A DNA stretch of 64,000 bases from assembly GCA_965221775.1 (NCBI GenBank), contig CBDCSU010000005.1, positions 512,001 through 576,000 of the forward strand, in the 5' to 3' direction. A program made the position numbers and the translations under genes. The notes under the pieces are model-generated. The model saw only the letters and a list, made by a program, of their open reading frames with translations. It made no database searches and was not told where the DNA came from. The first letter of the stretch is position 1, and each line of letters begins with the position of its first letter. Of the stretch, positions 23,021-39,625 are shown in pieces. Source of the stretch: Candidatus Latescibacterota bacterium (GTDB lineage Bacteria; Latescibacterota; UBA2968; UBA8231).

Positions 23021-23023
23021 GCC

Positions 23024-23422
23024 ATGGCCAAGGTGCTGATCGCCGAGCACGACGAGAGGGTGCTCGACGCCCTGGCCACGCTGCTGCGGAGCGCCGGCCA
23101 CGAGGTCTTCGAGGCCGGTCGCTGCGAAGACGCCCTGGAGACCGTCGCCTCCGAGAGTCCCGATATCCTCCTCACCGACGTGAACATGCCGGGGATGACC
23201 GGCGTCCAGATGATCAAGAGGCTGCGCAAGAGCCACCCCACCATCGGCATCATCGCCATGTCCGGCGGCGGCATGCACCAGAACCCGGAGCTGGCCACGA
23301 CCCTGGCCAGTATCGCCGGCGCCGACCGGGCGCTGGAAAAGCCCTTCAAGAACGAGATCCTGCTCTCGAACGTGCACTCCCTGCTGGCCACGGCCCGGAG
23401 GCCCCGCGCCGGCCGCAGGTAG
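23024..23422 (+). CDS. Single-domain response regulator (receiver)
   Basis: DILLTDVNMPGMTG, IIAMSGG, LEKPF. Confidence 0.92.
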   Translation: MAKVLIAEHDERVLDALATLLRSAGHEVFEAGRCEDALETVASESPDILLTDVNMPGMTGVQMIKRLRKSHPTIGIIAMSGGGMHQNPELATTLASIAGADRALEKPFKNEILLSNVHSLLATARRPRAGRR

Positions 23423-23468
23423 ACGAGACCCGGGCGACCGGGTGGGGCCCATGGGCGGGGAGAGAGTC

Positions 23469-24212
23469 GTGAGTCCATCGGAGAATCAGTACGACGCCAT
23501 CGCCGGGGCCTACCAGGACTCGAAGCGGTTGCCATTTCGCAGATATGTGGAGGCCTACTCCCTGTTCGAGATCCTCGGAGACCTTCGAGGCACGAGAGTC
23601 GTGGACCTGGCCTGCGGCGACGGGTTCTACACTCGCCGGATCAAGAGCGCCGGGGCCCTCGAGGTCATCGGCGTCGATCTCTCGGCGGAGATGGTCAGGC
23701 TCGCCGAAGAGGAGGAGCGCGCCCGCCCCCTCGGGTGCAGGTACCTCCACCGGGATGCGGCGGCGGTGGAGCTGCCCGAACGGGTCGACCTGGTCGTGGC
23801 CGTCTATCTCCTCAACTACGCCAGGACGAGGGAGGAGCTGCTCCGCTTCGTCGAGACGGCTCACGCCTTGCTTCGGCCCGGAGGACGCCTCGTCGGGTTC
23901 AACGACAACGTGCGGAACGTGCCCAGGGGCCGGCTCTCCCTGGCCCGGTACGGGTTGGAGAAGGAGTGCGCCGAATCACCCCGGGAAGGGGACGTGATCC
24001 ACTACAGGATCACCAATGAAGATGGAGAGCGGTTCGAGTTCCGGAACTACTACCTGGAGCCGGAGACCTATGAGCGCTCCTTCCGGGAGGCCGGATTTTC
24101 CGGGTTTCGTTGGGCCGGTCCCTACCTGCACCCCTCTCAGCGCCACGATCCCTTCTGGGAGGACTTCATGTCCAGTCCCCCGGTCATCGGCTTCCGCGCG
24201 GACAGGCCGTGA
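23469..24212 (+). CDS. Class I SAM-dependent methyltransferase (ToxA-like)
   Basis: QYDAI, VVDLACGDG, GVDLSAEM, YLLNYA, LRPGGRL. Confidence 0.88.
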   Translation: MSPSENQYDAIAGAYQDSKRLPFRRYVEAYSLFEILGDLRGTRVVDLACGDGFYTRRIKSAGALEVIGVDLSAEMVRLAEEEERARPLGCRYLHRDAAAVELPERVDLVVAVYLLNYARTREELLRFVETAHALLRPGGRLVGFNDNVRNVPRGRLSLARYGLEKECAESPREGDVIHYRITNEDGERFEFRNYYLEPETYERSFREAGFSGFRWAGPYLHPSQRHDPFWEDFMSSPPVIGFRADRP

Positions 24213-24267
24213 GCGCCGGCCGCCGCGCTGCGGCTCCCACCCGAAAACCTGCAAGAAGGAGGATCCC

Positions 24268-24786
24268 ATGAGACTTCAGATGCCCGGCCTTCACCGCCGT
24301 ACCCGGAGGTTGCCTCTGCTCATTCCCCTGGCCCTGCTCTTCCTGGCCTGCGGCGGCGACGACGCCCCGACCGAGCCGGAGCCCGCCCCGCCGGATGCCG
24401 AGGCGGCCGCCCGGGCGCAGGCGCAGGCGCTCTTCACCAGCCTCGAGCCGGTGGTGGCCAAGGCTCTGGAGCTGATGCTCACCGGGGGCGGCACGATCGA
24501 CGGCGAGCAGGGGACCCTGGCCGTGGCCGGCAGCACGATGACCCTGGAGTCGTTCTCGGCCGACGGCCAGCTCGTCCTCGACGGCGAGCTGGTCCTCGAC
24601 CTTCTCGTCCAGCCCGTCACCTTGAAGGGAGACCTGCAGGCCAGCGGGATCGAGGGCCGGGAAGGTCCGGTGCCCGTCAAGGTGGACGTCACCATCGACA
24701 TTTCCACCGACCCGCGGACCTACGGAGGTACCGTCACCATCGGCGAGGACGTGTACGACCTCGACGAGCTGTTCGCCGAGGAATAG
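24268..24786 (+). CDS. Hypothetical lipoprotein
   Basis: AGGAGG RBS; lipobox FLAC followed by GGDD. Confidence 0.7.
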   Translation: MRLQMPGLHRRTRRLPLLIPLALLFLACGGDDAPTEPEPAPPDAEAAARAQAQALFTSLEPVVAKALELMLTGGGTIDGEQGTLAVAGSTMTLESFSADGQLVLDGELVLDLLVQPVTLKGDLQASGIEGREGPVPVKVDVTIDISTDPRTYGGTVTIGEDVYDLDELFAEE

Positions 24787-24853
24787 GGAAGCTGCCAGGG
24801 GGCGGCCCGGCTCCTCCGAGCCGGCGCCGCCGCCGGAGGGGATGGCGGTGATG

Positions 24854-24882
24854 TTGCCCTCCATTTCGACCGGGGGTACCTT
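24854..24882 (+). promoter_or_regulatory. Sigma-70-type promoter for giant-gene operon
   Basis: TTGCCC-N17-TACCTT about 120 nt upstream of 25005. Confidence 0.4.
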
Positions 24883-25004
24883 CACCCGCTCCATACCCCG
24901 GCGGTCGAGCGCACCTCAGGTGACGCCCGTCGACGACCTCCGGACCTCCGGCGACAAGGCCGCCGACCGGCCTCCAGCAGACCGGGGATGAGACCTCCGC
25001 TACC

Positions 25005-28000
25005 GTGCCCCCACCGCTGAACTCCCAGGGCCTTCCCCTACGGCTCGTCGACCACCCCGGGCCCCGGGGGATCTGCCGCGCCCGGCGGAGCCCCGGGGAG
25101 GTCCTGGCCGACGGGGCCCTGGCCTTCGGCTCCCGCCCCTTCTCCGACACCTCCGTCACCGTCCCCGACGACGCCGGTCCCGAGGCGGCGCTGGCGGCCC
25201 GGCTGTGCGAACGGGCGGCGCGCTTGGTCTCCCGGCGCTTCGAGGGCGACACCCACCTGGCCGGGCTGGCCTCGGGTCTGGCCGGCACCGAGTGGCCGCT
25301 GGCCTTGTGCCGGGGCCACGAGCGCCTCCTCGACTTCGACGGCCGGCGCCTGTGGCTGGCGGCCGACGCCATGGCCGCCCTCGGCATCGGACTCGAGGCC
25401 AAGGACGATCTCAGCGCCGAGGTGCCCGAGCGCCTGCGCGGCTTCGAGCTCCTCCTCGCCCTCGGGCTCTTCGCCCAGCTCGACATCGTCCGCGGCGCCT
25501 CCCTGCGCCGGTCCCTGCGCTGGGTCGTCGACCTCTACCGCCGCCTGGGACGGCCGGACCAGGCCGTGCTCCTGGCCCTGCTCGAAGGCTCCGGAGAGCT
25601 CGACGCCGGCAACCTGTTCTCCTCCTTCCTGCGCCGGGGGAGCCGCGAGGAGACCATCGGCCGCGACCGCTGGATCACCTGGCTCCTCGGCCAGGACCGC
25701 CTCGACCTGCCCTACGACCGCCGGGCGGCGGGGGAGATCCTCGACAGCGACGCCGACGTGGACGACAAGCGCCTGCTCCTCTACGGGGTGCTGCGCGACT
25801 ACGACCGCGACCTGGAGGCGGAGAACATCCGCCGCCTCTCCCGCGAGATCCGGACCGCCGGACAGGAGCTGGTCTTCGGCCGCATGAGCCGCGCCTTCCA
25901 CAACCAAGGGGCGCTCTTCGCCGATGCCGTGCGCCTCACCCCGACGCCGGCCTGGAAGCCTCTGGCCGAAGAGGCCTGGGAGGCCGCCGCCGGAGCCGCG
26001 GCGATGCAGTCTCCGGCCCTGGAGCTGCGCCTGCTGCTGGAGGCGGGCCAGCCGGTCTCCCTGATCCAGATGGAGGGCGCCTGCGAACGCTACGAGGAGG
26101 CCTCCCTCGACGCCCAGCGCGACGACCTGATGCGGGGACTGCACCGGGCCCGGGCCTTGGTGGAGGACCACGGCGACGAGCTGGCCGGCCCCCGGCAGAC
26201 GGCCCTCGACGTCGATTCGGTGAGCCGCCTCGTCCGCCGGCGCCTCGGACTCGTGGAGCGCGTGCGCGAGGAGCTGCTGCGCTCCCCCTCCACCAACGCC
26301 GCCTACGTCGTCATCAGCCAGCGCCCCTCCCCCACCGGTTCCCACCTGCTGGTGAAGATCAACGAGTTCGAGGAGCCCTACCTGGGCAAGGCCGACAACC
26401 TGACGAAGCTGGCGCGCCTGGCCGGCGACCGCCTCTACTCCAGCCCCGACTACCGCTGGCTCGAGGTCGCCGACCACTGGATCGAGGCGATCCCCCTGTT
26501 CATCAAGGAGGAGGTCCTGGTCGACGACGACGGCGTCGAGTCGACGCGCACGGTCATCGACATCGACGGCATGGAGGAGTCCTTCCGCGAGGAGATGGCC
26601 GACCACTGGGCCGCGAACCTGCGCGACGTGGCCGACTCGGAGTACGTCTCCGCGGCCCGTTGGCTCCTGTGCCGGGAGGCCGGTCAGGACCGGGACGAGG
26701 CCGCCGCCCTCGACTGGGCGCGCTCCGCCCCCGGCGACCCCTCCGCCGACATCGCCTGCGCCGCGGCCCTCGTATCCCGCCTCGCCGCAGAGAACGCCGG
26801 CGATCTGCGGCGCCGCATCGAGGCCGAGGAGGAGGAGCCCTTCGAGGCCCTGTGGTCCCTGTTGTCGGCCTGGCGCTCCGAGCCCGCCTCGAGTCTCGCC
26901 GGGACCTTGGCCCGGGCCCGTGAAGAGCCGTGGTCCACCCTCGTCGATCCGGAAGCCGAGGTCGGCGAGTCCCGCGCCCGGTCCTTCCGCCGCAGGGCCC
27001 TCGAGCCCCGCCGGCCCCTGCCGGTGCTGCACGTGCTCACCACCCAGTCGGCGGGCATGACCGACGGCTACATCCGCACCTGGCTCGAGGAGTCGATGGC
27101 CCTGCGCAACGTCGCCGCCGCCCGCGGGCTGGAGGCCGAGGTCGACGAGCGGCGGGCGTTCTACCGCCGGCGGCTGAGCGCCCTCGGCGAGCGGGTGGTC
27201 CGCGAGCTGGGCATCTGGGTCGAGGTGGAGGAAGCCGCCGCCGAGGAGGATCTCGACGAAGGCGCCGCCGTGTCGCGCGTCGTCGGCGGCAACCGCTCGG
27301 TCCAGGAGGAGGTCGCCGTCCTCGGCGCTCTCATCGAGCTGGCCGAGGAACGCGGCGGCGAGCGGGAGCCCGGCGACGTGGCCGACCCGGCGGAGGTGGC
27401 CAGGCTCTGCGAGTCGGGTGACCGGGACCTGGTCCGCCAGGCCCTGGAGCGGGTGGCGGCGCGCAACGGCCGCCAGCTCGAGGAGGAGGTCGAGGCCCTG
27501 AGGTCCGCCGAGCCCGCCCTGTCCCGGCAGGACGCCCTGGTGCGGGTCGTGGAGGGCGACGAGGACTACCGCCAGGACCTGGAGAGCTTCACCCGCTTCC
27601 TGGCCCGCCGCCGCCTGGTGGACGACTGGTCCCGCCAGGCGGGCGTCGACGGCGACGACCGGCGGCGCACCTACCTGCGCCGGTTCTCGCGGCTGGCCGG
27701 GACGACGGCCCGCAAGCAGGTGCTGCTGCGCCACGGTCTCGCCCACCTGACCCTCGACCCGGCCTACCGCTGGGCCGCCGCCGGGGGCGACAAGCGCTAC
27801 CACCTGCTCTACACGCCGAGCCGCGTCGACCTCGGGCACCGGGAGCGGGAGTCGGTGGAGACCTGGTCCCAGTGGGTCGGCGGCGCCGACCGCGCCGCGG
27901 CGCGCGCCGGCAGAGAGATCTACGGGCTGATCAACAAGTCCGTGCGCAGCTACGACAGCCTGGCCGAGCCGGAGATCCTCAAGACCGGCGAGAACGCCAG

Positions 28001-31000
28001 CATGGCCTCGCACTTCGCCTTCTCCAACGCCCTGTCGCTGATGGTCTCGGCCAGCGGCCACGGCGACATCGAGGAGATGGGCGACCAGATGAGCCGCCGC
28101 GGCGACCGCGTCATCCATCCGGCGGGCGAGGGCTACGGCGGCTACTGCGTGCCCAAGGACGGCCTCTTCCTCGAGTTCGTCCTCACCCTCGGCCGCGCCG
28201 AGAAGCTGCGCCAGCTCGGCGTTCCCGCCGAGCACCACGACGGGGTGGCCGGCGCCGCGGCAAGGCTCCTCGGCCGCCGCGGCGAGTTCGCCACGCGCTT
28301 CGAGTGGGAGGCCTGGGCCGCCGGCGCCCTGGGCGGCGTCGACGGCCTCGGCGGGCTGTTCGCCGTCCGCGAGGGAGAGGGGGGGCCGGTTCCGGTCTTC
28401 CAGATCACCCGCCTGGCCGAGGTCCTGGAAGGGCTGGGAGAGCCGGAGCTGCACGACGCCGAACGCGCCACCACGGCGCGGGTGGCGCGCTGGGGCGTGC
28501 ACAAGATGGTCGCCGGCGCCGAGCACGTGAACCGCTTCATGCCCTTCTACAAGGTCTGGCTGACCCGGCGGGCCCTGGCCGACGCCGCCCGCCGCCACCC
28601 CGCCGCGGCGGCCGCCCCGGTGGTGGTGCTCACGGCGGAGTACAAGCCCGACACCCAGGACGGGCGGTTCGCCGCCGGCATGCGCAAGTTCGAGATCCTG
28701 TGCGGCACGGCGGACCACCTGCTCTACGCCCTCGACGCGGAGGGCCAGACCCTGGCGGGCCTGCTGTCCGATGGCTTCGACGGCGTCGACCGCCGCGGGC
28801 GCGCGGATCGGGCCGCTGCCGCCCTCGGCCTCGACCCCGGCGATCCGTCGACGCCGGGAACCCTGCGCGAGCTCTTCCCCGAGCCGCCCCGGCCGGCCGA
28901 GATCCGCGTCGTCTCCCCCACCGGCCTCTCGACCCAGGACCTGCTCGGCTACACCAGCGACACCAGCCTGGAGGCGGTCGCCGAGGGAGCCCATCAGGAG
29001 CTGACCGCCGCCGGCTTCAGCGGCGCCGAGATCGAGGCCAGCCTGGCCACCTACGGGCCGCACCTGGAGCGCTGGGCCTCGGCGGCCGACATCGACGCCG
29101 GCCTCCGCGCCGACCTGTCGCGGCGGCTCTCCGGACGGCTGCACGCCCTGGCCCTGCAGGTCCTCGGTCCCGAGCGCTCCTACGAGCACGCCCTGCAGGG
29201 CGCCGACGTCCTCGACACCGGCATTCCGCACGCGGCCCTGCTGCGGCTTCTCGAGGATCCGGCGGCGGTCTGCCGCCTGATGCTGGAGGGCCGCCCCGAC
29301 AGCGCCCTGGTCATCGTCGACGGCGCCTCCGGGGCCCGCCGGCGCGCTCTGAACCGTCTCGACGTCATGCTCTGGTTCGCCGCCGGAGAGCGCTACGGCC
29401 GCGAGCCGGTCTACGCCGGCATCGGCCTGGGGAACCGCACCGTCGAGGGCTGGCGCCAGGCGATGCGCCGGCAACGGCGCCGCGCCCGGCGACTGGGCGA
29501 GGCCCTGCGCGCCTCCGACGCCGGCGCCGCCGCCGCCGAGTACGCGCAGATCCTGGCCGAGGTGCGCCTCGGCCAGGAGGCGGAGCTGCAGCTGGCCGAG
29601 GTCGACAAGCTGCGCCGCTTCCAACGCCTGCGCCGGCGCGACGAACTGGTGGCCCGGTCCCTCGCCCGCCTCGCCGGGGGGTTGCCCCTGGAGGAGCTCG
29701 GCTTCGCCGACTTCCTCGTCCTCGGCGGCGTCTTCCTCCTCGACGGGGCCCCTGCCGAGGAGATCGACGACTGGCGGCGCGGCCTGGGCCTCGGCCCGGG
29801 GGACCCGGACTCCCGGGAGCTGGAGAGCCTGCTCCTGCACCCGGCCCGGCCCCCGGAGCTGGGAGAGTTCCGCGAGGAGAAAGGTCTGGAGAGCTCGAAC
29901 AAGGCGGCCGAGGACCGTCCCGTCGCCGCCCTCGAGGCGCGCAGCCAGTTGCGGGCCCGCATCCTCCGCGCCCGGGCCCTCCACGAGCGGCACCGCGGCG
30001 CCGAGTCCGTCGACGGCCGGCGCGCTTCCTTCGAAGAGGCCCGGGCCGCGGCCTTCGAGGTCCTGGGCGACGGCCGCGGGACCGTCACCGACGCGGCCTT
30101 CGGCGCCTTCATCGCCCACGCCCGCACCGCCCTCTCCGCCCTCGTGACCGGGCAGTACGACGAGGGACAGGCCGACGAGGCCCAGCGCTTCCACGACAAC
30201 CTTGCACAGCTCTTCCTCGGCCACGAGATCGACCCGGAGGACTGGCGCCGGATCGCCGGCGGCTACGAGGACGTGGGCGACTTCGGACGCCTGGCGCAGG
30301 CCGTGGTCGAGCGCGAGGAGGCCGGCGCCGCCGGTCACGGCCTGCGCCAGGTGGCGGCCGGAGCCGAGCTGTTCTACATCCTCCTGGCGGTGGAGACGAC
30401 CCTGCCCTACACCCGGGAAGGGGCTCCCGCCGACCCCGAGGGACTCTGGCGCGCCCTGGCCGACTTCTTCGCCGAGACCGTAGACGACCACTTCTACGAG
30501 TACCGGCCCTGGGTCTACTCCCGGGGGGTCGGTTTCTCCTCGTACTCGGGCGACTCCCTCTACGAGCTGGCCGTCGAGCACCACCAGTGGCTGGGGCGCT
30601 ACCTGCGCCAAGTCGTGACCCGTCACACCGAGCTGGCCGGCCGGACCTCGGAGGACCAGGACCTGCTTCTGGGCCGCCATGAGGGCGATGCCGCCGTCGA
30701 CCCCATCGGCGTCACCGCCGCCTCCGGGCCGGAGCGGCGCTGGCGGGCCTACGGACAGCTGCGCGAGCTCGCCTTCATGCGCAACGACGGCTTCCCCATC
30801 CCCCCCGTGTTCTCCGAGTTCGATCCCGGCCTGATCGACGCCGACCGGCGAGTCAACCACCTGATCGCCCTGCCCGTGGGCCGCACCCACTACTCGCGGG
30901 CCCTGGTCGAGGGGCCGACCCTGTCCCGGGAGCTGACCGCCGCCGGACGGCCCGGGACCAACCTGATCATCAGCCGCGGCGTCGACTTGGTGGACGATCC

Positions 31001-32426
31001 GCAGGCCGGCCGGCCCGTCGTGCAGATCCGTTCCGGCCACCTCTACGTCTCGCGGGAGGAGTACGCGGCGGCCCTTGTCCGCCATCGCGGCCTCGACGCC
31101 GAGGAGGCCCGCGAGCAGGCCGGGCGCGAGGGCACCCCGAAGGGGATCCGGCTGGCCGTGCGCTTCACGCGCCCCCTGACGGCGGCCGTCGTCTACCCCT
31201 TCCACGGGGACCCCCGGTACCACGAGGGACGCCTGGAGGACTGCGGACTGCCCTACTCGGTGCAGTCCCTGTTCCACACCTGGACCACCTACGACAAGGC
31301 GAAGTACCCCGACATCTTCGACGCCGCCTCCGGCGTCGACGTGCCCCACGAGATCGACTGGCTCGCCGCCGACACCCGGCGCGCGCCCTCCGAGAGCGCC
31401 GCCAGGAACTGGATCGAGAACGGCCTGGACGGGTCGGACTACCCGGGGCTGCGGGAGTTCGCCCGCCGCCATCGCCTGGTGATGATCAAGGACGCCGCCG
31501 AGTCCGGGGGCCGGAACGCCCGGGCCTTCGTCCTTCGCCGGCTCGCGGCCGCCGCCGTCGACGAGGCGGAGCTGGAACGCGCCGTCGACTTCGTCCACCA
31601 GATCAGCCTGCGCCACAACGTCGCCATCCAGGAGGTGATCCTGTCCTCGCCGGAGGCCTGGGCCACCGACGACTTCATCGACTCCTTCGTGCGCCGCCAG
31701 GTCGTCGAGTGGGGCTCCGCCGTCGAGCGCCGGCGCCGGCCGCGCTCGCCGATCTACGGATCGCACCGGGTGATCGTCTCATCCGACGATCCGGCCGCCG
31801 ACCTCCCCCTCGAGGAGCGCTGGCACCTGTCCCACTGGATCACCCTCAACAGCAAGCAGCTGATCACCAATGTCGGCCGCGGCGGCAGCCTCGAGCGCTT
31901 CCTCCCCGAGATCGTCCAGCCCGCCTGCCGGCAGGCCCTCTTCGACGGCCTGGCCGCCGCCGCCCGCGGGGTCATGGAGGCCCTGAGCGCCTATGCCGGG
32001 CGCGGCGCCGAGGCCTACCGCCGCGACAGCGGCCGGCCGGTGGGCCGCGACCTGACCGGACTGTCGTACGGAACGCCGCGCTACATGATGCTCGACTTCC
32101 TGGTGACGCCGCGCTTCGCCGAGGAGGGAGACCTTGTCGAGGTAACCCGCGAGCCGGGCCTCGAGCCGGTCTTCATCCTCCAGCACGGGGACCACCGCTT
32201 CCCGGGCACCCTGTCGGGCTGGCGCGTCGTCCTGATCGAGCCCAACATCGGAGTCGGCCTGTGGGACCGCGTGGCCCTGCGCGAGGAGGCCCACGAGCGC
32301 GCCGCCAGCGAGGCGGACCAGCGGCCCTTCGACTGGGACCGGGTCGGCGAGAACGCCCGCGTCGTGCTGCGCGACCTCAGCCGCGCCGGCGAGGACTACC
32401 TGAAAGCCCTCGAAGGGCAGCGGTGA
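25005..32426 (+). CDS. Giant fusion: insertion-interrupted nucleotide-sugar (UDP-Glc/GDP-Man-type) 6-dehydrogenase plus C-terminal ATP-grasp domain
   Basis: YTPSRV, ILKTGEN..FSN, GYGGYCVPKD, EYKPDTQDGR, ALQGADV; C-terminal YDKAK, MIKDAAESGGRN, IQE, TNVGRGG, LIEPN; strong GC3 codon bias. Confidence 0.8.
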   Translation: MPPPLNSQGLPLRLVDHPGPRGICRARRSPGEVLADGALAFGSRPFSDTSVTVPDDAGPEAALAARLCERAARLVSRRFEGDTHLAGLASGLAGTEWPLALCRGHERLLDFDGRRLWLAADAMAALGIGLEAKDDLSAEVPERLRGFELLLALGLFAQLDIVRGASLRRSLRWVVDLYRRLGRPDQAVLLALLEGSGELDAGNLFSSFLRRGSREETIGRDRWITWLLGQDRLDLPYDRRAAGEILDSDADVDDKRLLLYGVLRDYDRDLEAENIRRLSREIRTAGQELVFGRMSRAFHNQGALFADAVRLTPTPAWKPLAEEAWEAAAGAAAMQSPALELRLLLEAGQPVSLIQMEGACERYEEASLDAQRDDLMRGLHRARALVEDHGDELAGPRQTALDVDSVSRLVRRRLGLVERVREELLRSPSTNAAYVVISQRPSPTGSHLLVKINEFEEPYLGKADNLTKLARLAGDRLYSSPDYRWLEVADHWIEAIPLFIKEEVLVDDDGVESTRTVIDIDGMEESFREEMADHWAANLRDVADSEYVSAARWLLCREAGQDRDEAAALDWARSAPGDPSADIACAAALVSRLAAENAGDLRRRIEAEEEEPFEALWSLLSAWRSEPASSLAGTLARAREEPWSTLVDPEAEVGESRARSFRRRALEPRRPLPVLHVLTTQSAGMTDGYIRTWLEESMALRNVAAARGLEAEVDERRAFYRRRLSALGERVVRELGIWVEVEEAAAEEDLDEGAAVSRVVGGNRSVQEEVAVLGALIELAEERGGEREPGDVADPAEVARLCESGDRDLVRQALERVAARNGRQLEEEVEALRSAEPALSRQDALVRVVEGDEDYRQDLESFTRFLARRRLVDDWSRQAGVDGDDRRRTYLRRFSRLAGTTARKQVLLRHGLAHLTLDPAYRWAAAGGDKRYHLLYTPSRVDLGHRERESVETWSQWVGGADRAAARAGREIYGLINKSVRSYDSLAEPEILKTGENASMASHFAFSNALSLMVSASGHGDIEEMGDQMSRRGDRVIHPAGEGYGGYCVPKDGLFLEFVLTLGRAEKLRQLGVPAEHHDGVAGAAARLLGRRGEFATRFEWEAWAAGALGGVDGLGGLFAVREGEGGPVPVFQITRLAEVLEGLGEPELHDAERATTARVARWGVHKMVAGAEHVNRFMPFYKVWLTRRALADAARRHPAAAAAPVVVLTAEYKPDTQDGRFAAGMRKFEILCGTADHLLYALDAEGQTLAGLLSDGFDGVDRRGRADRAAAALGLDPGDPSTPGTLRELFPEPPRPAEIRVVSPTGLSTQDLLGYTSDTSLEAVAEGAHQELTAAGFSGAEIEASLATYGPHLERWASAADIDAGLRADLSRRLSGRLHALALQVLGPERSYEHALQGADVLDTGIPHAALLRLLEDPAAVCRLMLEGRPDSALVIVDGASGARRRALNRLDVMLWFAAGERYGREPVYAGIGLGNRTVEGWRQAMRRQRRRARRLGEALRASDAGAAAAEYAQILAEVRLGQEAELQLAEVDKLRRFQRLRRRDELVARSLARLAGGLPLEELGFADFLVLGGVFLLDGAPAEEIDDWRRGLGLGPGDPDSRELESLLLHPARPPELGEFREEKGLESSNKAAEDRPVAALEARSQLRARILRARALHERHRGAESVDGRRASFEEARAAAFEVLGDGRGTVTDAAFGAFIAHARTALSALVTGQYDEGQADEAQRFHDNLAQLFLGHEIDPEDWRRIAGGYEDVGDFGRLAQAVVEREEAGAAGHGLRQVAAGAELFYILLAVETTLPYTREGAPADPEGLWRALADFFAETVDDHFYEYRPWVYSRGVGFSSYSGDSLYELAVEHHQWLGRYLRQVVTRHTELAGRTSEDQDLLLGRHEGDAAVDPIGVTAASGPERRWRAYGQLRELAFMRNDGFPIPPVFSEFDPGLIDADRRVNHLIALPVGRTHYSRALVEGPTLSRELTAAGRPGTNLIISRGVDLVDDPQAGRPVVQIRSGHLYVSREEYAAALVRHRGLDAEEAREQAGREGTPKGIRLAVRFTRPLTAAVVYPFHGDPRYHEGRLEDCGLPYSVQSLFHTWTTYDKAKYPDIFDAASGVDVPHEIDWLAADTRRAPSESAARNWIENGLDGSDYPGLREFARRHRLVMIKDAAESGGRNARAFVLRRLAAAAVDEAELERAVDFVHQISLRHNVAIQEVILSSPEAWATDDFIDSFVRRQVVEWGSAVERRRRPRSPIYGSHRVIVSSDDPAADLPLEERWHLSHWITLNSKQLITNVGRGGSLERFLPEIVQPACRQALFDGLAAAARGVMEALSAYAGRGAEAYRRDSGRPVGRDLTGLSYGTPRYMMLDFLVTPRFAEEGDLVEVTREPGLEPVFILQHGDHRFPGTLSGWRVVLIEPNIGVGLWDRVALREEAHERAASEADQRPFDWDRVGENARVVLRDLSRAGEDYLKALEGQR

Positions 32427-33907
32427 GCGGCGACGACCGGCACCTCGAGGTCGCCTGGACGCGGGCCTGCGACGGCCTCGGCATCGGCCGCGGGACCCCC
32501 CTGGCGGCGAGCGAGGCCAGCGTCCTGCTCAAGTATCTCATCTCCGAACGCGCCTCGGTCCCGGATGGCCCGGACTGCTGTGCCCGCGACCGCTGCCGCC
32601 GCGCCTGGGTGGAATGGATGGCCGCCGGCGCCGAGGACCTCGACCGGGCCCTGAGACCGGGGGCCGCGCCGGCCGTGCGCGGCGTGCTCGAAAAGGACGC
32701 GGAGTACACCGGCCGCATCATCGACCTGGCCGTGGCCGACCTCGTGAGCGAGCCCATGGCTCCCGAGGTCTGCATCGAGACGGTGCCCTTGGGCGGTCTT
32801 CCCCCCGGGGGGCGCTGGAACCACGCCGTGATCTTCGCCGCCGCCCCCCTGATCACCCACGAGATCTACCCCCTGGCCGCCGACGCCTGCGTCCATGACG
32901 CCCGCGCCGGGGGGCCTTTCTACCGCGTCCTCGGCGTCCACGGGGACTGGCTGTCCAACGGCCGGGCCCGCCGCGTCCTGTGGTTGGATGCCGAGCGCGA
33001 CCGGTTCTGCGAGGCGCCCCTTTCCGAGCCGGTCCACCTGCACTCGGCGCAGCTCCTCGCCCTGGGTCCGCAACAGACACGGTGTCACCTGATCTGGGCC
33101 CGGCGCCTGACCTGCCCCCTGGTCAACCCGGGACCGCCTTCGGCCACGGCCGACGACAAGCACGGCCTCTCCCGGCGGTGGGCCGACGCCGGTCTCGAGG
33201 TGCCCGCGGGAGTCCTGGTGGCCCCGGGCCACCGCCTCGCCGCCCGCGACTTCCTGCACCGCACCGGGGAGATCGTGGTCAAGCCCAACGACGGCACCGA
33301 GGGGCAGAGGGTGCGCTACCTCTCCGCCTCCGCCCCGGAGGCCGAGGACCTCCTGGACGCGCAGCTCAGCGCCTGCTGGGAGTGGGGTCCGGCGCGCCTG
33401 GAAGAGCGCCGGGACGGAATCGTCTGGCGCGATCCGGAGACCGGCAGCTGCCACAGCCTCGCCATCCGCCTGCACGTGGCCGCCGGCGCCGCGGGGCTGC
33501 GGGCCGAGTCCGGATACGCCCTGGTGGGAGCCGGCGTCGACACCCCCGCCACCCGCGGGGCCGGGGGCCGCATGCGCCCCCTGCAGAGCGTCACTTCCTC
33601 GCTGGCCCTGCGCGCCAGCGGCGCTGGCGCCGCCTTCACCGGCGCCGACCTGGAGCGGACGAGACAGCTGGCGGAGGCGGCCGCCGGCATCGTCGGCGGC
33701 ATCGGCCTCAGCGGCGTCGACCTGGTCCTCGACGCCACCCCGGCGGGAGAGGTGGTGCCGGTGCTGCTCGAGCTCAACCCCCGCCCCGCCGGCCTGGCCC
33801 ACGCCCGCTTCCTCCCCGGCTCGGGCGAGGGACGGGTCGAAGCGGGTGTCTCCCTGGACGTGTGGGCCGGCCTGGCCGCGCTCTGCCGGAAGACCGCCGC
33901 CGAGTGA
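32423..33907 (+). CDS. ATP-grasp domain protein (RimK-like)
   Basis: DDKHG, VVKPNDGTEGQRV, LEER, SGVDLVLD, LLELNPRPAG; GTGA overlap with giant gene. Confidence 0.8.
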   Translation: MSGDDRHLEVAWTRACDGLGIGRGTPLAASEASVLLKYLISERASVPDGPDCCARDRCRRAWVEWMAAGAEDLDRALRPGAAPAVRGVLEKDAEYTGRIIDLAVADLVSEPMAPEVCIETVPLGGLPPGGRWNHAVIFAAAPLITHEIYPLAADACVHDARAGGPFYRVLGVHGDWLSNGRARRVLWLDAERDRFCEAPLSEPVHLHSAQLLALGPQQTRCHLIWARRLTCPLVNPGPPSATADDKHGLSRRWADAGLEVPAGVLVAPGHRLAARDFLHRTGEIVVKPNDGTEGQRVRYLSASAPEAEDLLDAQLSACWEWGPARLEERRDGIVWRDPETGSCHSLAIRLHVAAGAAGLRAESGYALVGAGVDTPATRGAGGRMRPLQSVTSSLALRASGAGAAFTGADLERTRQLAEAAAGIVGGIGLSGVDLVLDATPAGEVVPVLLELNPRPAGLAHARFLPGSGEGRVEAGVSLDVWAGLAALCRKTAAE

Positions 33908-35763
33908 GCATGGAGGCCCTGACCAGCCGGCTGGCGGAGGCCTCCCCCGACGAGGTCCGGGACCTCGTGGCGGCGGCGGTGGCCCGGGCCCGCGAAGGCC
34001 ATTCCTCCCGGTCCGAACGCCGCGCCTTCCTGCGCGGCCTGGTCCTCTCCCCCGGGCTGGCCCGTTCGCTGCAGACGGGTTCGGCCATCGATACCCTGCG
34101 CGGATCCCTGTCCTCCGGGGAGTGGGGGCAGCTGTTCGGCCCGGCCGTGGAGGAGGAGCTTCCCGGGCTTCTCGTGGCCGTGGTGGACGGCCGGATCGAC
34201 GTGGACCACGAGGACATCCTCTCCCTGGCCGCGGAGAACGGCGCGGCGCTGGCCGCCTCGGTCGGGGAGTTGTCGGCCTACGTCGGCGGTCTCGAGGGCA
34301 GCCGGCGCCGGTTGCGGGGCATGCGCGCGGCCGTCATCCTCGCCTCCCTCTTCCAGCGGCTGCGGGACGGCGCGGCCTGGGGGCGGCGGCCGATTCCCGC
34401 ATGCGCCATCGACGGCCCGCGGATCTCGGCGCTGAAGGAGAAGAAGGCGGTCGCCGACCTTCCGGCCGCCTACGAGGTCCGGGTGAACGAGCTGCAGCGG
34501 GAGGACATGCGCCGGGCCCTCGAGGCGGTGGCCGGCCATTCCCCCGGGGCCGTATCGATGGCCGCCGCCGATAGCGAGACGTCTTTCGAGGTGCGCGCCC
34601 CTCTCCGCCTCGGCCTGTCGAGTGCCAACGCCTCGGACAACCACATCCGCAGCAAGGAGCAGGGCGGCAAAACCCTCAACGCCGGCATCGCCCTGCAGGC
34701 CGGCGACTCCGGGGAGATCGCCCCGCCGCTCTGCGTGAGGGCCCGGCCGCTGCCCGAGCCGCGCCTCGTGCTGCGCTCCCGCTCCGCCGATTTCCAGGCC
34801 GACTTCGAGATCGACCGCCGCGGAGACGCCGGCACCCAGAGCGAGCTGTTCTTCGCCTACCGCCGCGGCGGCGACGAGGCCCTGCGCATGGTCAAGCAGG
34901 GCCTGGTGCACACCGGGATCGTCGGTCCCGACTCCGACGACGTGGTCGGCGACCTGGCGCGCTTCTGCGGCGGCGGCGGCCTCGAGATCACCACCTCCTG
35001 CACCGTGCAGCAGGGGTCGGGCCTCGGCACCAGCAGCATCCTGGCGGCAGCGGTCCTCAAGGTCCTCTACCGCCTCGTGGGCCACCCCGCCGGCGGTGAG
35101 GCCGAGTATCCCGGTCTCTACGATCAGAGCGTGCTCCTCGAGCAGTCCATCGGCCTGAACTCGGGATGGCAGGACGCGCGCGGGGCCCGGGGAGGACCGA
35201 GCGCGGTGAAGGACTTCTTCGCGCCTCCCACCGACGGCCTGCCGGCGCCCGAGCTGACCTACGTCGACGTCGACGCCGAGTCGTTCCACCGCCGCGTGGT
35301 GCTCTTCGACACCGGCATCGCCCGCGCCGCCACCCGCGGCCTGAACGTGGTCATGGACGCCTACCTGTCCCGCCGGCGCGGGCGCTACGGGGCGATCCGC
35401 GAGTCGCTGTCGATCCACGACGAGATGGTCGAGGCCCTGGGCGCCGGCGACTACCGCGCCCTCGGGAGGCTGGCCAGCCGCTACTGGCAGCTGCGCTGCA
35501 TCCTCGATCCGGAGGCCACCAGCCCCGCCCTTCAGCAGCTCTTCGAGCCGCCGGTCTCCGACCTCACCGAAGGGGGCACCCTCTCCGGCGCCGGGGGCGG
35601 CGGTTTCGGACTCCTCGTTGCCCGCGAGGGCGAAGAGGAGCGCCTCCACGCGTGTCTGAGAAAGCTGAAGGACCAGCGGGCCTATGCCCGGTCCGCCGTC
35701 GTCGCCTACCGCCTCGACGCCACCGGTCTGCAACTCACCGAAAGCCAACCACCGCCGCCGTAG
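33904..35763 (+). CDS. GHMP-family sugar kinase, L-fucokinase/heptose-7-P kinase-like, with N-terminal extension
   Basis: RAPLRL, LNAGI, QGSGLGTSSIL, LEQ...GWQD, SGAGGGGF; GTGA overlap (alternative ATG at 33910). Confidence 0.85.
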   Translation: MSMEALTSRLAEASPDEVRDLVAAAVARAREGHSSRSERRAFLRGLVLSPGLARSLQTGSAIDTLRGSLSSGEWGQLFGPAVEEELPGLLVAVVDGRIDVDHEDILSLAAENGAALAASVGELSAYVGGLEGSRRRLRGMRAAVILASLFQRLRDGAAWGRRPIPACAIDGPRISALKEKKAVADLPAAYEVRVNELQREDMRRALEAVAGHSPGAVSMAAADSETSFEVRAPLRLGLSSANASDNHIRSKEQGGKTLNAGIALQAGDSGEIAPPLCVRARPLPEPRLVLRSRSADFQADFEIDRRGDAGTQSELFFAYRRGGDEALRMVKQGLVHTGIVGPDSDDVVGDLARFCGGGGLEITTSCTVQQGSGLGTSSILAAAVLKVLYRLVGHPAGGEAEYPGLYDQSVLLEQSIGLNSGWQDARGARGGPSAVKDFFAPPTDGLPAPELTYVDVDAESFHRRVVLFDTGIARAATRGLNVVMDAYLSRRRGRYGAIRESLSIHDEMVEALGAGDYRALGRLASRYWQLRCILDPEATSPALQQLFEPPVSDLTEGGTLSGAGGGGFGLLVAREGEEERLHACLRKLKDQRAYARSAVVAYRLDATGLQLTESQPPPP

Positions 35764-35782
35764 CCAACACGGAGGAGACGGC

Positions 35783-36550
35783 ATGCTGATGCAGGACTGC
35801 GCCGGTTTCGTCACCGGTGTCGCCAATCACCGGAGCATCGCCTGGGCCACCGCCCGGGCTCTCGACCGCGAGGGCGCCCGGCTGGCCCTCGGATACCTGG
35901 GAGAGCGCGAGCTGGAGAGCATCGAGCGCATCACCGGCCAGTTGCGGCAGCCGCCCCTGCTGGTGCAGTGCGACGTCACCGACGACGAGTCGGTGGCCTC
36001 CGCCTTCGAGGTCGTGGGCCGGGAGATGGGGTCCATCGACTGCCTGGTCCACGCCATCGCCTTCGCCCGCCGGGAGGATCTGGACGGCCGCTTCGCCGAC
36101 ACCAGCCGCAGCGGCTACGACCTGGCCCTCGGCGTCAGCGCCTACTCGCTGAACGTCCTGGTGCGCGGCGCCGAGCCGCTCATGAAGCCGGGGGCCGGCG
36201 TCGTCGCCCTCACCTACCTGGGCAGCGAGCGCGCGATCCCCCGGTACAATGTCATGGGCGTGGCCAAGGCCGCCCTGGAGTCGGGCATCCGCTACCTGGC
36301 CAGCGAGTTGGGGGAGAAGGGCATCCGCGTCAACGGGCTCTCGGCCGGACCGATCCGCACCCTGGCGGCGCGCGGCATCCGCGACTTCAACGCCATGCTC
36401 CGCGTCCACGCCGAGCGCGCCGCCCTCAAGCGCAACAACGAGGTCGACGAGATCGGCGACGCCGCCCTGTTCCTGTGCAGCCGGCTGAGCCGCGGGATGA
36501 CCGGCGAGGTGATGTACGTCGACGCCGGCTACCGGATCATGGGCCTCTAG
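35783..36550 (+). CDS. fabI: Enoyl-ACP reductase (NADH)
   Basis: GVANHRSIAW, HAIAFA, SAYSL, YNVMGVAKAALE, SAGPIRTLAA. Confidence 0.95.
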   Translation: MLMQDCAGFVTGVANHRSIAWATARALDREGARLALGYLGERELESIERITGQLRQPPLLVQCDVTDDESVASAFEVVGREMGSIDCLVHAIAFARREDLDGRFADTSRSGYDLALGVSAYSLNVLVRGAEPLMKPGAGVVALTYLGSERAIPRYNVMGVAKAALESGIRYLASELGEKGIRVNGLSAGPIRTLAARGIRDFNAMLRVHAERAALKRNNEVDEIGDAALFLCSRLSRGMTGEVMYVDAGYRIMGL

Positions 36551-37236
36551 CCCGGCGGCGGCAGGTCGAGGCCGCGCAGCGCCTCCCGGGAGTGGCGGGC
36601 CGTGGTATCGTCCCCGCTCCGCGCCAGCGCCTCCAGATGGACGCGCAGGAAGGCCGCCTCCCTCGGCACGTCGACATCGTACCCGGGGGGCATGAGCGAC
36701 AGCCGCAGCCCCCCGGGCAGGGCCGCCAGGGTCTGCTCCAGGACCCGGCCCGTCCCCCACTCGATCCCGTGGAAGACCGCCGGCGCCGCCGACGGCAGGG
36801 CATCGGCCCGCAGACCGATCAGGTAGTAGCCGCCGTCGACGCTGGGGCCGATCACCACGTCGGCCGTCCGCAGCCGGCGCAGGGCCTCGTCGATGGACGA
36901 GGGCGTCAGCGAGGGACTGTCCGAACCGAGGAGGACGACGCGCCCGCAGCCGGCGCCGACAGCCCGCCGGCAGAGGGTTTCCAGACGCTCTCCGAGGGAG
37001 CCTCCGGGCTGCCCCTCGAAGGTCAGTCCCTCGTACGCCCCAAGAAGTGCGCGCAGGGAAGACTCGCCCTCGGGCGGCTCCACGGCGACGATCTTGAGGC
37101 TCGCCGCGGAGGCCGCCAGGGCGGCGGCGCAGTCACGCAGGAATGCGGTGTAGAGCTCCGCCGCCTGGCCGGACGTCAGCGGCGGCTGCAGCCGGGTCTT
37201 CACCCTCCCGCCGCCGGGATCCCTGGCGAAGAGCAC
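36547..37236 (-). CDS. DUF2064 / TIGR04282-like glycosyltransferase-A fold protein (CofC-like)
   Basis: LFARDP..GRVKTRL, QPGGSLGERL, GSDSP, GPSVDGGYYLIG, IEWGT, DVD. Confidence 0.85.
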   Translation of the reverse strand: MLFARDPGGGRVKTRLQPPLTSGQAAELYTAFLRDCAAALAASAASLKIVAVEPPEGESSLRALLGAYEGLTFEGQPGGSLGERLETLCRRAVGAGCGRVVLLGSDSPSLTPSSIDEALRRLRTADVVIGPSVDGGYYLIGLRADALPSAAPAVFHGIEWGTGRVLEQTLAALPGGLRLSLMPPGYDVDVPREAAFLRVHLEALARSGDDTTARHSREALRGLDLPPPG

Positions 37237-37263
37237 GGCACCGGTCAGGACGGCCCCTCCGGT

Positions 37264-37292
37264 TTGAAGAGCCGCGAGAGGGGCCGTATCTT
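37264..37292 (+). promoter_or_regulatory. Sigma-70-type promoter of the RidA-like/decarboxylase operon
   Basis: TTGAAG-N17-TATCTT. Confidence 0.4.
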
Positions 37293-37350
37293 CGATGGTT
37301 TGCGCACGCTACCCACCCCTTCAAAACTCAGAGGAAGCGGAAGAGATCCG

Positions 37351-38544
37351 ATGGCAGAGGTACACATCATCCGGCACCGCCCCGGCGCCGTGTTCTGCGG
37401 CACCTGCGAGGTCGTGCAGATCGACGACGACAGCAAGATCACCCGCCTCGTGGAGCCCAGCGGCAACGTGGGCACCCAGTACCCGAACGAGGTCGGCTCC
37501 GAGTGGTTCGGCACGATCGAGAATCTGAGCGCCGGTCTGGCCCTGGGCAAGGCGCACTGGTCCGACGTGTACAAGACCGACGTTCTGTGGACGACGCCTT
37601 CCGCCTCCCGCGATGAGTGCGACGCCCGCAAGAACGACTTCAACGCCGTGTACGGCGCCATGCTGCAGGCCGTCACCGGGGGGCCGCTGCGCTCCAACCG
37701 GATGGCCCGCTTCACGCACCCGGAGGGCTTCCCCGACCCGGCAGCCCTCTTCGAGGTGCAGATCAAGGCCGCCGCGGGCGACGTCGAGATCGGCGGCGGC
37801 CGCCTCGACTTCGGGTCGTGGATCGACCATCAGCCGAGCGGCGCCTCGGTGATGCACCGCAAGGACGGCGAGACGATCACCACCCTCGGACCGGACGTGG
37901 CCGAGGAGATGACCTTCGTCCTCGAAGAGCAGTACGCCCGCCCCTTCGCCGAGGCCGGCGTCGACTTCCGCACGCAGACGGTGTGGATGGAGATCCTCGT
38001 GGCCGTCGACGACGAACCGGACCAGGCCTGGAGCCGCATCGAGGTCGTGCGCCGGGTCTTCGAGGACTACTTCGGCGATCACCGGCCCGCCGGGCTGATC
38101 TACCCGGTGTCGCGGATCCCCAACCTCGACGGTGTCGTCGAGCCGCAGCCCCGCGTCGTCAGCGGCGACGGCGTCGAGATCATCCGCTCCGGCCGCCTGG
38201 AGCATGGCTTCAGCACCTGGACCGCCATCCGCCACGGCGGCATCACCGAGGTCATGGTGAGCGCCGTGGGTGGTGACGACGCCGGCGAGATCCTCGACGG
38301 TGTTGACGCCCGCGTGAAGGAGGCCGGTGGCGCTGGCCTCAAGGCCGACGGGGTGTTCAACAACGCCTACATCGGCGCCGGCGCCGACACCCAGGCCAAC
38401 CGGGACTCCCTGGCGGCCTTCAATCCTTCCTTCACCCGGTGGTACGAAGGCACGGTGCCCGCCGGGCGCACCGCCCAGTACGTCGGCGGCGTGCAGCAGT
38501 CCGGTTTCGCCTACGGCGTCTCCAACCGCTCGATCTTCGCCTGA
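37351..38544 (+). CDS. Protein with three tandem divergent RidA/YjgF-like domains
   Basis: ENLSAGL..WSDVYKTDV..FNAVY..PLRS..ALFEVQ; FEDYFGDHRPAG..VSRIP..VVE; AAFNPSF..PAGRTA. Confidence 0.6.
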   Translation: MAEVHIIRHRPGAVFCGTCEVVQIDDDSKITRLVEPSGNVGTQYPNEVGSEWFGTIENLSAGLALGKAHWSDVYKTDVLWTTPSASRDECDARKNDFNAVYGAMLQAVTGGPLRSNRMARFTHPEGFPDPAALFEVQIKAAAGDVEIGGGRLDFGSWIDHQPSGASVMHRKDGETITTLGPDVAEEMTFVLEEQYARPFAEAGVDFRTQTVWMEILVAVDDEPDQAWSRIEVVRRVFEDYFGDHRPAGLIYPVSRIPNLDGVVEPQPRVVSGDGVEIIRSGRLEHGFSTWTAIRHGGITEVMVSAVGGDDAGEILDGVDARVKEAGGAGLKADGVFNNAYIGAGADTQANRDSLAAFNPSFTRWYEGTVPAGRTAQYVGGVQQSGFAYGVSNRSIFA

Positions 38545-38557
38545 GGGCAGGCGCCCG

Positions 38558-39052
38558 TTGCAGTCCGCGCCGATCGTCGCCGAACTCAAGAGGCAGGGGG
38601 TCACCCACGTCGTCGGCCTTCCCGACAACGGCTCGAGGGCCCTCTTCGAGATGCTCTGGGCGGACGATGAGCTGGAGGTGATCGGCGTCACGCGGGAGGG
38701 AGAGGCCTTCGCCGTGGCCAGCGGCCTCTGCCTGGGCGGCGTCACCCCCGTGGTCATCATCCAGAACACGGGCTTCCTGGAGACGGGCGACGCCTTCCGC
38801 GGCACGGCCTACAACATGGGCCTGCCCCTGGTGATGCTCATGGGCTACCGGGGCTTCGAGTCGATGGCCCCGGGCGCCGAGCGCGTCGACACGGCGGCGA
38901 CCTTCTTCGAGCCGACCCTGAAGGCCTGGGATATCCCCTACTCGGTGCTCGACGACGACGGCGACGAGCGGGCCAAGGTGGCCTGGGCCTTCGATCTCGC
39001 CCGCGAGCGCTCGCTGCCGTCGGCGGTCCTTCTCGTGGGCACCACGGAATAG
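38558..39052 (+). CDS. TPP-dependent decarboxylase alpha subunit (sulfopyruvate/phosphonopyruvate decarboxylase-like)
   Basis: GVTHVVGLPD, TREGEAFAVASG, IQNTG, GYRG; TTG start. Confidence 0.85.
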   Translation: MQSAPIVAELKRQGVTHVVGLPDNGSRALFEMLWADDELEVIGVTREGEAFAVASGLCLGGVTPVVIIQNTGFLETGDAFRGTAYNMGLPLVMLMGYRGFESMAPGAERVDTAATFFEPTLKAWDIPYSVLDDDGDERAKVAWAFDLARERSLPSAVLLVGTTE

Positions 39053-39054
39053 CC

Positions 39055-39621: not shown

Positions 39622-39625
39622 CCTC

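Follow-up and report, generated by a model that had tools for sequence, protein, structure and literature searches.

The nucleoside diphosphate (NDP)-sugar dehydrogenases, among them human UDP-glucose dehydrogenase (hUGDH), CalS8 and the WecC-type enzymes, are built from three successive domains (PF03721, PF00984 and PF03720) and are recognised by a GxGxxG loop, a Lys..Asn pair, a nucleophilic Cys in GG.C.PKD, a C-terminal KP..D.R motif and an N-P-E-F motif whose Glu (Glu161 of hUGDH) serves in thioester hydrolysis. ATP-grasp enzymes such as RimK, Ddl, LysX and glutathione synthetase form another well-defined branch, and sugar-1-kinases are represented by Fkp (L-fucokinase/fucose-1-phosphate guanylyltransferase) and by the heptose kinases HddA and WcbL. 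A further ligase, the TupA-like ATP-grasp domain Cj1438C of Campylobacter jejuni, amidates the C6 carboxylate of glucuronate in the capsule (PMC11800379). In this study we describe a locus in which relatives of such enzymes stand side by side. It lies in a 64,000-nucleotide stretch of contig CBDCSU010000005.1 of a Candidatus Latescibacterota bacterium (the window, with a G+C content of 72%), where three consecutive genes encode a giant protein of 2,473 residues, a second ATP-grasp ligase that we call grasp2, and a GHMP sugar kinase. Our results show that these three proteins form one conserved, uncharacterised cytoplasmic enzyme unit, and we consider it somewhat probable that the trio works as a pathway of sugar activation and amide ligation.

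The genes of the giant (25005-32426, plus strand), of grasp2 (32423-33907, plus strand, 494 aa) and of the kinase (33904-35763, plus strand, 619 aa) are joined by GTGA sequences in which a stop and a start codon overlap, at 32423-32426 and 33904-33907, and an alternative ATG start of the kinase is present at 33910. The three genes are translationally coupled. The kinase stop codon, TAG at 35761-35763, is followed after 19 nt by the ATG at 35783 of a gene for a FabI-like enoyl-acyl carrier protein reductase (35783-36550, plus strand), which is preceded by GGAGGAG, and a gene for a DUF2064 protein of CofC-like fold (36547-37236, minus strand) converges on fabI so that their stop codons overlap. 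A first-pass annotation of the window had described this arrangement, and inspection of the sequence confirmed its coordinates, both overlaps, the 19-nt gap and the convergent DUF2064 gene. The giant is encoded once in the genome. No hydrophobic segment was found in the giant, grasp2 or the kinase, and the giant has no hydrophobic window above 1.6.

The same annotation had proposed conservation of the three-gene core in other genomes as a check, and the core proved to be conserved. A search for homologues of the giant returned 129 at E <= 0.001; the best 120 of these are mostly full length (about 2,400-2,650 aa) and 39-88% identical to the giant (99% within the window's own cluster), and wherever a source names them the name is "hypothetical protein", with the exception of a single "Rossmann-fold NAD(P)-binding domain-containing protein". 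When one genome per species was scanned, 120 relatives were confirmed and 78 loci kept, with hosts in Latescibacterota, Gemmatimonadota-labelled genomes, Methylococcaceae, Armatimonadota, Omnitrophota, Planctomycetota and deltaproteobacterial metagenome-assembled genomes (MAGs). The hosts include two methanotrophs that are in culture, Methylovulum miyakonense HT12 and Methyloglobulus morosus KoM1. When a profile of the last 974 residues of the giant, comprising its helical region and its ligase, was run against 1.84 billion representative proteins, it found 153 (90 of them at E <= 1e-30), a number so small that ordinary ATP-grasp enzymes evidently do not match it. That an enzyme of about 2,500 residues keeps 45-60% identity across phyla indicates strong selection on the giant.

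Sequence of 1.8 kb or more is available downstream of the giant in 67 loci, and in 44 of these grasp2 follows directly on the same strand. Across 168 genomes of the window's phylum the giant is present in 46 and grasp2 in 46, with 45 common to both, and in genus g13 the two are absent together (0 of 31 genomes). Where the giant stands alone, grasp2 is encoded elsewhere in four of five genomes tested, with a GHMP kinase behind it in all four. Some MAGs carry two paralogous giants (the locus pairs L025/L064 and L028/L034; genomes G032, G033 and G395-G398), and in both locus pairs only one copy, L064 or L034, was seen with grasp2 behind it, L028 having only 747 nt of sequence beyond the match.

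A further indication that the three proteins work together comes from natural fusions. Hidden Markov models (HMMs) of the separate parts were used to scan 146 of 150 listed family proteins, those left out being already in the analysis set. Twenty-five of the 146 exceed 2,800 aa, and in 17 the giant's ATP-grasp half is fused to grasp2 and a GHMP kinase in the gene order of the window; others join the giant and grasp2 only. These trio fusions are single proteins of 3,000-6,000 residues in Omnitrophota MAGs and in dictyostelid amoebae. All six dictyostelid-type proteins examined have the same order of parts; the full four-part order was seen in Polysphondylium violaceum, Dictyostelium purpureum, D. 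citrinum, Heterostelium album, Acytostelium subglobosum and Synstelium polycarpum, in proteins of about 4,000 residues. No kinase part was detected in the fusion of Pelomyxa schiedti, and a Lokiarchaeota (Asgard) MAG encodes a 3,105-residue fusion of giant and grasp2. In P0130 and P0136, Pfam recognises GHMP_N after the segment that corresponds to the ligase. Since the genes are adjacent, share a phyletic pattern and are fused, in the manner of Rosetta-stone proteins, in the same order, we regard the trio as one functional unit; recurrence in 78 loci and as fused proteins is more than would be expected by chance. A number of Omnitrophota proteins are larger still, with 1,500-3,500 further residues around the trio (P0132, 5597 aa; P0129, 5085 aa; P0152, 7944 aa; P0301, 6120 aa). 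In P0132 these residues belong to WD40/beta-propeller families according to precomputed Pfam annotation, and such additional domains may name further steps of the pathway.

The third member of the unit comes in two forms. In the window it is a long kinase with matches to GHMP_N (29.9 bits) and GHMP_C (22.5 bits), both above cut-off, and with the motifs GSGLGTSS at residue 371 (motif II), GWQD at 421 and GAGGGGF at 562 (motif III). The fucokinase profile NF009948 matches it over residues 231-612 at 1e-35, and scores stay far below the equivalog cut-offs (123 against 721 bits). The fucokinase-like motifs noted in the first-pass annotation are thus present; the N-terminal extension, which it had put at about 200 residues, comes to about 230, given that the profile match begins at residue 231. 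The nearest solved structures are the fucokinase domain of Fkp (5e-18) and kinases of HddA/WcbL type, the PDB matches being 9iip and 5yys at 5e-18 to 5e-17 and 3k85 at 1e-11. Because equivalog cut-offs are not reached, we do not assign a substrate. The short kinase is a GHMP kinase of 335-355 aa which BLASTP could not align with the long one, and among known enzymes both types come closest to Fkp, HddA and WcbL, which are anomeric sugar kinases. The long kinase was found in family f1 and not outside it, and is present in all 35 f1 genomes that carry the giant. In families f13 and f14 of the same phylum the short kinase accompanies the giant in six of six genomes, and is also present in three genomes that lack the giant. 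It lies 3' of grasp2 in seven loci, six of them labelled Methylococcaceae, Methylovulum or Methyloglobulus and one an unlabelled MAG, and directly behind a separately placed grasp2, at 47-258 nt, in four Omnitrophota-type genomes. In 201 sampled genomes of the family Methylococcaceae, giant and short kinase occur in four each, three of them shared.

Several observations weigh against so close a partnership. The long kinase is found without the giant in 36 f1 genomes, among them 30 of the 31 g13 genomes, in which the same genes flank it directly on either side, and the short kinase occurs without giant or grasp2 in genomes G107, G108, G014 and G249. As both types also exist without the giant, the kinase must have a role of its own. 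In two giant-bearing genomes of unknown completeness, G171 and G375, neither kinase type was found. The fused forms are known from protein sequences only (a scan of metagenome contigs for the DNA of P0130 gave no match), and a CsrA-like piece inside the long protein P0148 could reflect a merged gene call; a general artefact is unlikely, given that eukaryotic and NCBI-annotated entries exist. An alternative explanation would be that giant and grasp2 form a two-gene module, joined in many relatives by an HDOD protein, which merely lies beside a resident backbone of kinase, fabI and DUF2064 genes, so that the kinase does not feed the giant in this organism. Among the other f1 genomes the long kinase is indeed more widespread than the giant (70 against 34 of 75; in genus g13, 30 against 0 of 31), and the gene order of the giant-less locus L083 (PAS kinase, sigma-54 regulator, kinase, fabI, DUF2064) equals that of the giant-bearing locus L010 minus HDOD, giant and grasp2. 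This explanation does not account well for genus g16, in which grasp2 and the kinase remain together although the giant is on another contig, nor for the fact that in Methylococcaceae and the four Omnitrophota-type genomes grasp2 is followed by a GHMP kinase of a second type that cannot be aligned with the first. Moreover, the triple fusions include kinases akin to the long type (P0130, 31% identity, E 1e-31; P0156, 35%, E 5e-42), and in the window itself the stop codon of grasp2 and the start codon of the kinase overlap. We therefore consider the two-gene explanation unlikely, though deserving of attention, and retain the reading of a three-protein unit.

The giant itself consists of four regions. 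The first (residues 1-433; 25005-26303, plus strand) is conserved in an alignment of 30 homologues and probably helical; it matched nothing in Pfam, NCBIfam or the PDB profiles, and the best ESM Atlas rows for residues 1-430, HrpJ/SctW at 0.88 with low recognition, stay below the level of a lead. The second (residues ~434-1476; 26304-29432, plus strand) is the UGDH-derived module, which is seen in profiles, in PDB profile matches and in the predicted fold. The third (residues ~1477-1945; 29433-30839, plus strand) is all-helical in the predicted model and conserved, and no fold could be assigned to it by searches that barely reached it. The fourth (residues ~1946-2473; 30840-32423, plus strand) is an ATP-grasp domain with insertions, placed by the predicted model, Foldseek and VIA-align. 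Sequence libraries (Pfam and NCBIfam) recognise only about 130 residues of the whole protein, no model in either covering it beyond a short UGDH piece, and the PF00984 match stands at 25.5 bits against a cut-off of 25.4. The structural comparisons were made with two AlphaFold models computed from 33-sequence alignments, one of residues 400-1500 (predicted local distance difference test, pLDDT, 80; predicted template modelling score, pTM, 0.78) and one of residues 1500-2473 (pLDDT 88, pTM 0.80).

Our results show that the giant holds a module derived from UDP-glucose dehydrogenase (UGDH). The PDB matches of the 30-homologue profile are NDP-sugar dehydrogenases only, at positions 940-1066, and the alignments of the region around the central-domain Cys include 3g79 and 4a7p. 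In VIA-align the top 32 rows for residues ~434-1476 are all NDP-sugar dehydrogenases, with Z scores of 10.3-14.0, and the next, unrelated rows reach 7.8 at most. The overall root-mean-square deviation (rmsd) to whole NDP-sugar dehydrogenases is large, about 19 Å, because long helical insertions splay the domains; residues 226-465 of hUGDH, that is its central and C-terminal domains, fit the module with an rmsd of 3.4 Å over 197 residues. With Foldseek by itself no match to the module reached E <= 0.001, yet every top row was a UGDH relative. An hhalign comparison of the module with the canonical UGDHs of this and related genomes gave a probability of 96.8 and an E value of 2e-10 over columns 105-355 of 412, and aligned VVVLTAEYKPDTQDGRF of the module with LLGLSFKPDTDDIRE of the canonical enzymes at the FKP.T.D.R motif of the C-terminal nucleotide-sugar-binding domain.

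The conservation of the active site was followed in 24 members aligned to the module HMM, drawn from the window, Methylococcaceae, Gemmatimonadota-labelled genomes, Omnitrophota, one Lokiarchaeota MAG and eight Amoebozoa. In the window the central domain carries its Cys (C1048) in GGYCVPKD, with K993 and N997 as the upstream Lys..Asn pair and with D1052; the C-terminal domain carries YKPDTQDGR at 1213, the FKP.T.D.R motif of the family; and TPSRV and LTT lie at 937 and 678. All 24 members have Cys1048, Lys993, Asn997, Lys1051, Lys1214 and Ser939, the motif around the Cys reading G-Y/F-C-x-P-K-D/E, and 23 of the 24 have Arg1221 of the YK....D.R motif. For Cys1048, Lys993, Asn997 and Lys1051 we assume the catalytic roles that their counterparts have in UGDH. 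The retention of the UGDH set of Cys, Lys, Asn and Asp together with KP..D.R in all 24 members, across three domains of life, argues that the module is catalytic. The position of the N-P-E-F Glu is occupied by Ser939 in every member (P-S-R-V, with P-S-R aligned to P-E-R/F), and such a replacement of Glu by Ser, with the rest of the UGDH active site intact, points to chemistry beyond that of the textbook sugar-nucleotide dehydrogenases.

What speaks against an oxidising enzyme is found at the N-terminal end of the module. No Gly-rich GxGxxG loop was seen in the alignment of residues 425-560 of 28 members, and hhalign found no similarity of this stretch to canonical UGDHs (probability 0.06). The confidence of the model falls below a pLDDT of 50 there, and as the structural alignments start near UGDH residue 30, the module may contain a derived NAD site. 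TIGR03026 scores the giant at 56.5 bits, below its cut-off of 189.8, which together with the lack of a detectable NAD-binding motif leaves NAD-dependent oxidation unproven; a separate, canonical NDP-sugar dehydrogenase encoded in the genome reaches 448.9 bits with the same model. The description of the giant in the first-pass annotation as a dehydrogenase joined to an ATP-grasp ligase thus holds for both parts by profile and fold, while the name "dehydrogenase", judged from sequence, is uncertain in view of the missing GxGxxG and the substituted Glu. We conclude that the module is a conserved derivative of UGDH, probably catalytic, that departs from the family in two of its defining features.

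The C-terminal domain of the giant is, in its predicted structure, a RimK/Ddl-type ATP-grasp ligase. Foldseek returned 53 matches at E <= 0.001 with Ddl and VanA at the top (probability 1.00, E 1.6e-6), and VIA-align placed RimK first (Z 18.6, rmsd 4.0, 280 of 294 residues), followed by Ddl, DcsG, LysX/ArgX and GshB, with the peptide cyclases PsnB and MdnC also among the matches. The residues K2162 (in IKDAAESGG), D2364 (in MMLDF) and E2412-P-N2414 are invariant in 30 sequences, and we take K2162, D2364 and E2412/N2414 to be the ATP and Mg ligands of the ATP-grasp fold. In grasp2, about 230 N-terminal residues without an assigned fold precede what its profile indicates to be an ATP-grasp core, with VKPN at 286, GVDLV at 431 and ELNPRP at 450; PF02655 matches at 25.2 bits (cut-off 23.2), the family profile matches Ddl (3.5e-8), RimK/LysX (5e-8) and cyanophycin synthase in the PDB at positions 231-335, and D433 and N452 are invariant in 29 sequences. 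As hhalign finds no similarity between grasp2 and the C-terminal half of the giant, the two ligases are not recent duplicates.

These matches raise the possibility that the unit modifies peptides or proteins, the ligases acting like RimK, LysX or cyanophycin synthetase on a protein, a carrier or a poly-amino-acid, and the UGDH module serving as a non-oxidising binding or regulatory domain. The ranking of RimK, LysX/ArgX, PsnB and MdnC among the relatives of the giant's ligase, the cyanophycin synthase match of grasp2 and the undetected NAD-binding motif would all be in keeping with such a machine. The UGDH active-site set and KP..D.R, kept in 24 of 24 members, argue for catalysis, though; the recurring partners are a sugar-1-kinase and galU, and none of the genes that recur beside the giant encodes a small carrier protein or a precursor peptide. 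On balance we think a peptide- or protein-modifying role improbable, and prefer that of an enzyme unit acting on sugars.

In the pathway that we favour, the GHMP kinase would phosphorylate a free sugar at C1 and a nucleotidyltransferase would convert the product to an NDP-sugar, a step that GalU could perform where it is encoded next door. The UGDH-derived module would then bind the NDP-sugar and transform it through an intermediate linked to Cys1048, towards a uronate or an acyl-enzyme, and the two ATP-grasp ligases would attach one or more amino acids or amines in amide linkage by acyl-phosphate chemistry. The product might be a soluble amino-acyl or peptidyl sugar acid, either a metabolite or a cytoplasmic polymer, and not a surface glycan. 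Counting against this scheme, no nucleotidyltransferase is encoded in the operon of the window. In a Methylococcaceae locus (L051) grasp2 is followed by galU (TIGR01099, 357 bits, above cut-off), and the corresponding cluster of open reading frames (ORFs) has members in L013, L030, L042 and L051; the 6,120-aa protein P0301 is named "NTP transferase domain-containing protein" at NCBI. The two lend circumstantial support to an order of kinase, nucleotidyl transfer and dehydrogenase-like module, the logic that the first-pass annotation had put forward. The family-wide change of Glu to Ser makes a further route conceivable, in which the UGDH-derived domain, deprived of the hydrolytic Glu, would keep the sugar acid as a Cys thioester and pass it directly to an amine while the two ligases build a peptide part. 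The unit would then represent a megaenzyme pathway for a new class of glyco-amino-acid metabolites or polymers in bacteria, an Asgard archaeon and amoebae; we offer this extended version as a speculation that is doubtful as it stands.

The first-pass annotation had gone further and proposed an amino-acylated or peptidyl uronic-acid building block for a surface glycan, cofactor or metabolite, with the CofC-like DUF2064 protein as a possible nucleotidyltransferase. In its full form this scheme would have the operon, with DUF2064 and fabI, make an amidated uronic-acid unit for a surface glycan. The DUF2064 protein is CofC-like (PF09837, 100 bits; TIGR04282, 158 bits, cut-off 134), with a weak match to CofC itself. 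Of the loci with 4.5 kb or more of downstream sequence, 21 have the long kinase, and in 18 of these DUF2064 stays near it. The association is limited to one family and persists without the giant. Among the 59 loci with at least 4.5 kb of downstream sequence, fabI follows the trio in 19 and DUF2064 in 18, in all cases with the long kinase; both genes stay beside the kinase in giant-less loci (DUF2064 in L080 and L083), and neither was found in the Methylococcaceae, Armatimonadota or Omnitrophota-type loci. The two genes are thus lineage synteny, part of the backbone of family f1 and outside the unit, and the data do not support that they travel with the core. The fabI product matches adh_short_C2 at 272 bits and its best FabI equivalog at 320 bits, below the cut-off of 370. 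In addition, no glycosyltransferase, flippase or polysaccharide-export gene recurs near the trio across the loci, and the unit is present in amoebae. For these reasons the surface-glycan proposal appears to us very improbable. A soluble amide-linked sugar acid, which is our best guess for the product, fits the lack of both hydrophobic segments and recurring glycosyltransferase or export genes. The pairing of the kinase with the CofC-like protein might constitute a small activation pathway of its own.

The genes around the trio vary between lineages. Downstream, the f1 backbone extends over 33904-40867 and comprises the long kinase, the FabI-like and DUF2064 proteins, a TPP-enzyme N-domain protein (38327-39052) and a DUF362/LarA_N-like protein (39395-40867), an arrangement also seen in L080 and L083. 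After grasp2, a major facilitator superfamily transporter is present in two loci and a sodium:solute symporter in two, and around the short kinase no neighbouring gene was conserved in four genomes compared, whether giant-bearing or giant-less. In three related MAGs (L104, 11080-15167) genes for TrpRS/TyrRS-like, HisH-like and HisF-like proteins lie 5' of a separate pair of grasp2 and short kinase, which faces a divergent NAD-dependent epimerase/dehydratase gene; we do not count these genes in the unit. Paralogues of HisH and HisF can serve as amidotransferases in sugar pathways.

Upstream of the giant, relatives encode regulators: in one arrangement a PAS kinase and an NtrC-type regulator together with an HDOD protein, in another a MASE1 protein with an HD-GYP response regulator. 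In many of them the same strand carries, in order, DUF1684, two small uncharacterised genes, the genes for a PAS histidine kinase and a sigma-54-dependent response regulator, and HDOD (L010, 2905-9963; L033 and L073), and a perfect or one-mismatch sigma-54 consensus precedes the first small gene (for example at -4352 in L033 and -3628 in L073 from the start of the giant). The window's own genus lacks this gene set. An ORF of the window at 24016-24786 (plus strand) was considered as the counterpart of HDOD and rejected, being unrelated to the HDOD protein of relatives; it has no family match, and its conservation does not extend beyond the nearest relatives (L002, L003 and L008). As it contains a signal of lipoprotein type (LALLFLACGG), translation is likely to start later. 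A candidate sigma-54 promoter 5' of the giant (TGGCGG-N5-TTGCC at 24843-24858) was likewise discarded as a chance match because, with up to two mismatches allowed within 400 nt upstream of the giant, such a site was present in only one of 68 loci. The sigma-54 matches that do recur, at about +10.45 kb, are inside the kinase coding sequence. A scan of 23000-39000 for promoters and terminators gave no promoter and two terminator-like sites, both near 24090, against a mean of 2.6 in shuffled sequences. Farther upstream, an ORF at 20141-23452 (minus strand, 1103 aa) resembles formate-tetrahydrofolate ligase only in residues 535-1102, and the part encoding its N-terminal half also holds, on the opposite strand, a separate receiver gene of response-regulator type (23024-23422, plus strand), for which reason its true start is probably much later; a radical SAM/SPASM protein with a C-terminal SEC-C motif is encoded at 17602-19203 (plus strand).

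Most of the DNA sequencing runs that hold the 23000-39000 stretch date from 2024-2025. An RNA library labelled sponge metagenome contains contigs that are 90-99% alike to this stretch across all 30 of its bins and come from a related strain; we did not use the library as evidence of expression, since 87% of these contigs continue into unlike sequence and carry-over of DNA is possible.

The superfamilies that make up the trio are known, and what appears to be undescribed is the architecture, the altered active site and the distribution across domains of life. We found no paper on the family, including by amoebal locus tags, in a search that excluded supplements and papers not under a Creative Commons licence. 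Its function is directly testable, as the unit occurs in two cultured methanotrophs and in laboratory amoebae.

Compared with described systems, the trio combines known parts in a different way. Fkp and the heptose kinases HddA and WcbL are nearest to its kinase domain, but the 230-residue N-terminal extension of the long kinase matches no pyrophosphorylase. The C-terminal domain of Cj1438 forms C6 uronic-acid amides, the chemistry proposed here for the trio; it is fused to a family GT2 glycosyltransferase and acts on a capsular polymer (PMC11800379), whereas the trio has neither a match to the TupA family in Pfam nor a glycosyltransferase or capsule locus. In relation to the NDP-sugar dehydrogenases, GxGxxG is not detected in the module and the N-P-E-F Glu is Ser in all 24 members, while the three-domain order, recognisable by fold, the Lys..Asn pair, the nucleophilic Cys of GG.C.PKD and the C-terminal KP..D.R are shared, and what takes about 450 residues in those enzymes takes about 1,040 here, with helical insertions and inside a protein of 2,473 residues. 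The same tendency to enlargement is seen in the ligase of the giant, which has the fold of the RimK/Ddl/LysX/glutathione synthetase branch, to which the profile of grasp2 also points through Ddl, RimK and LysX, and which shares with it the Lys and D...E-x-N motifs, in a domain of about 520 residues with large insertions compared with about 300 in the known enzymes.

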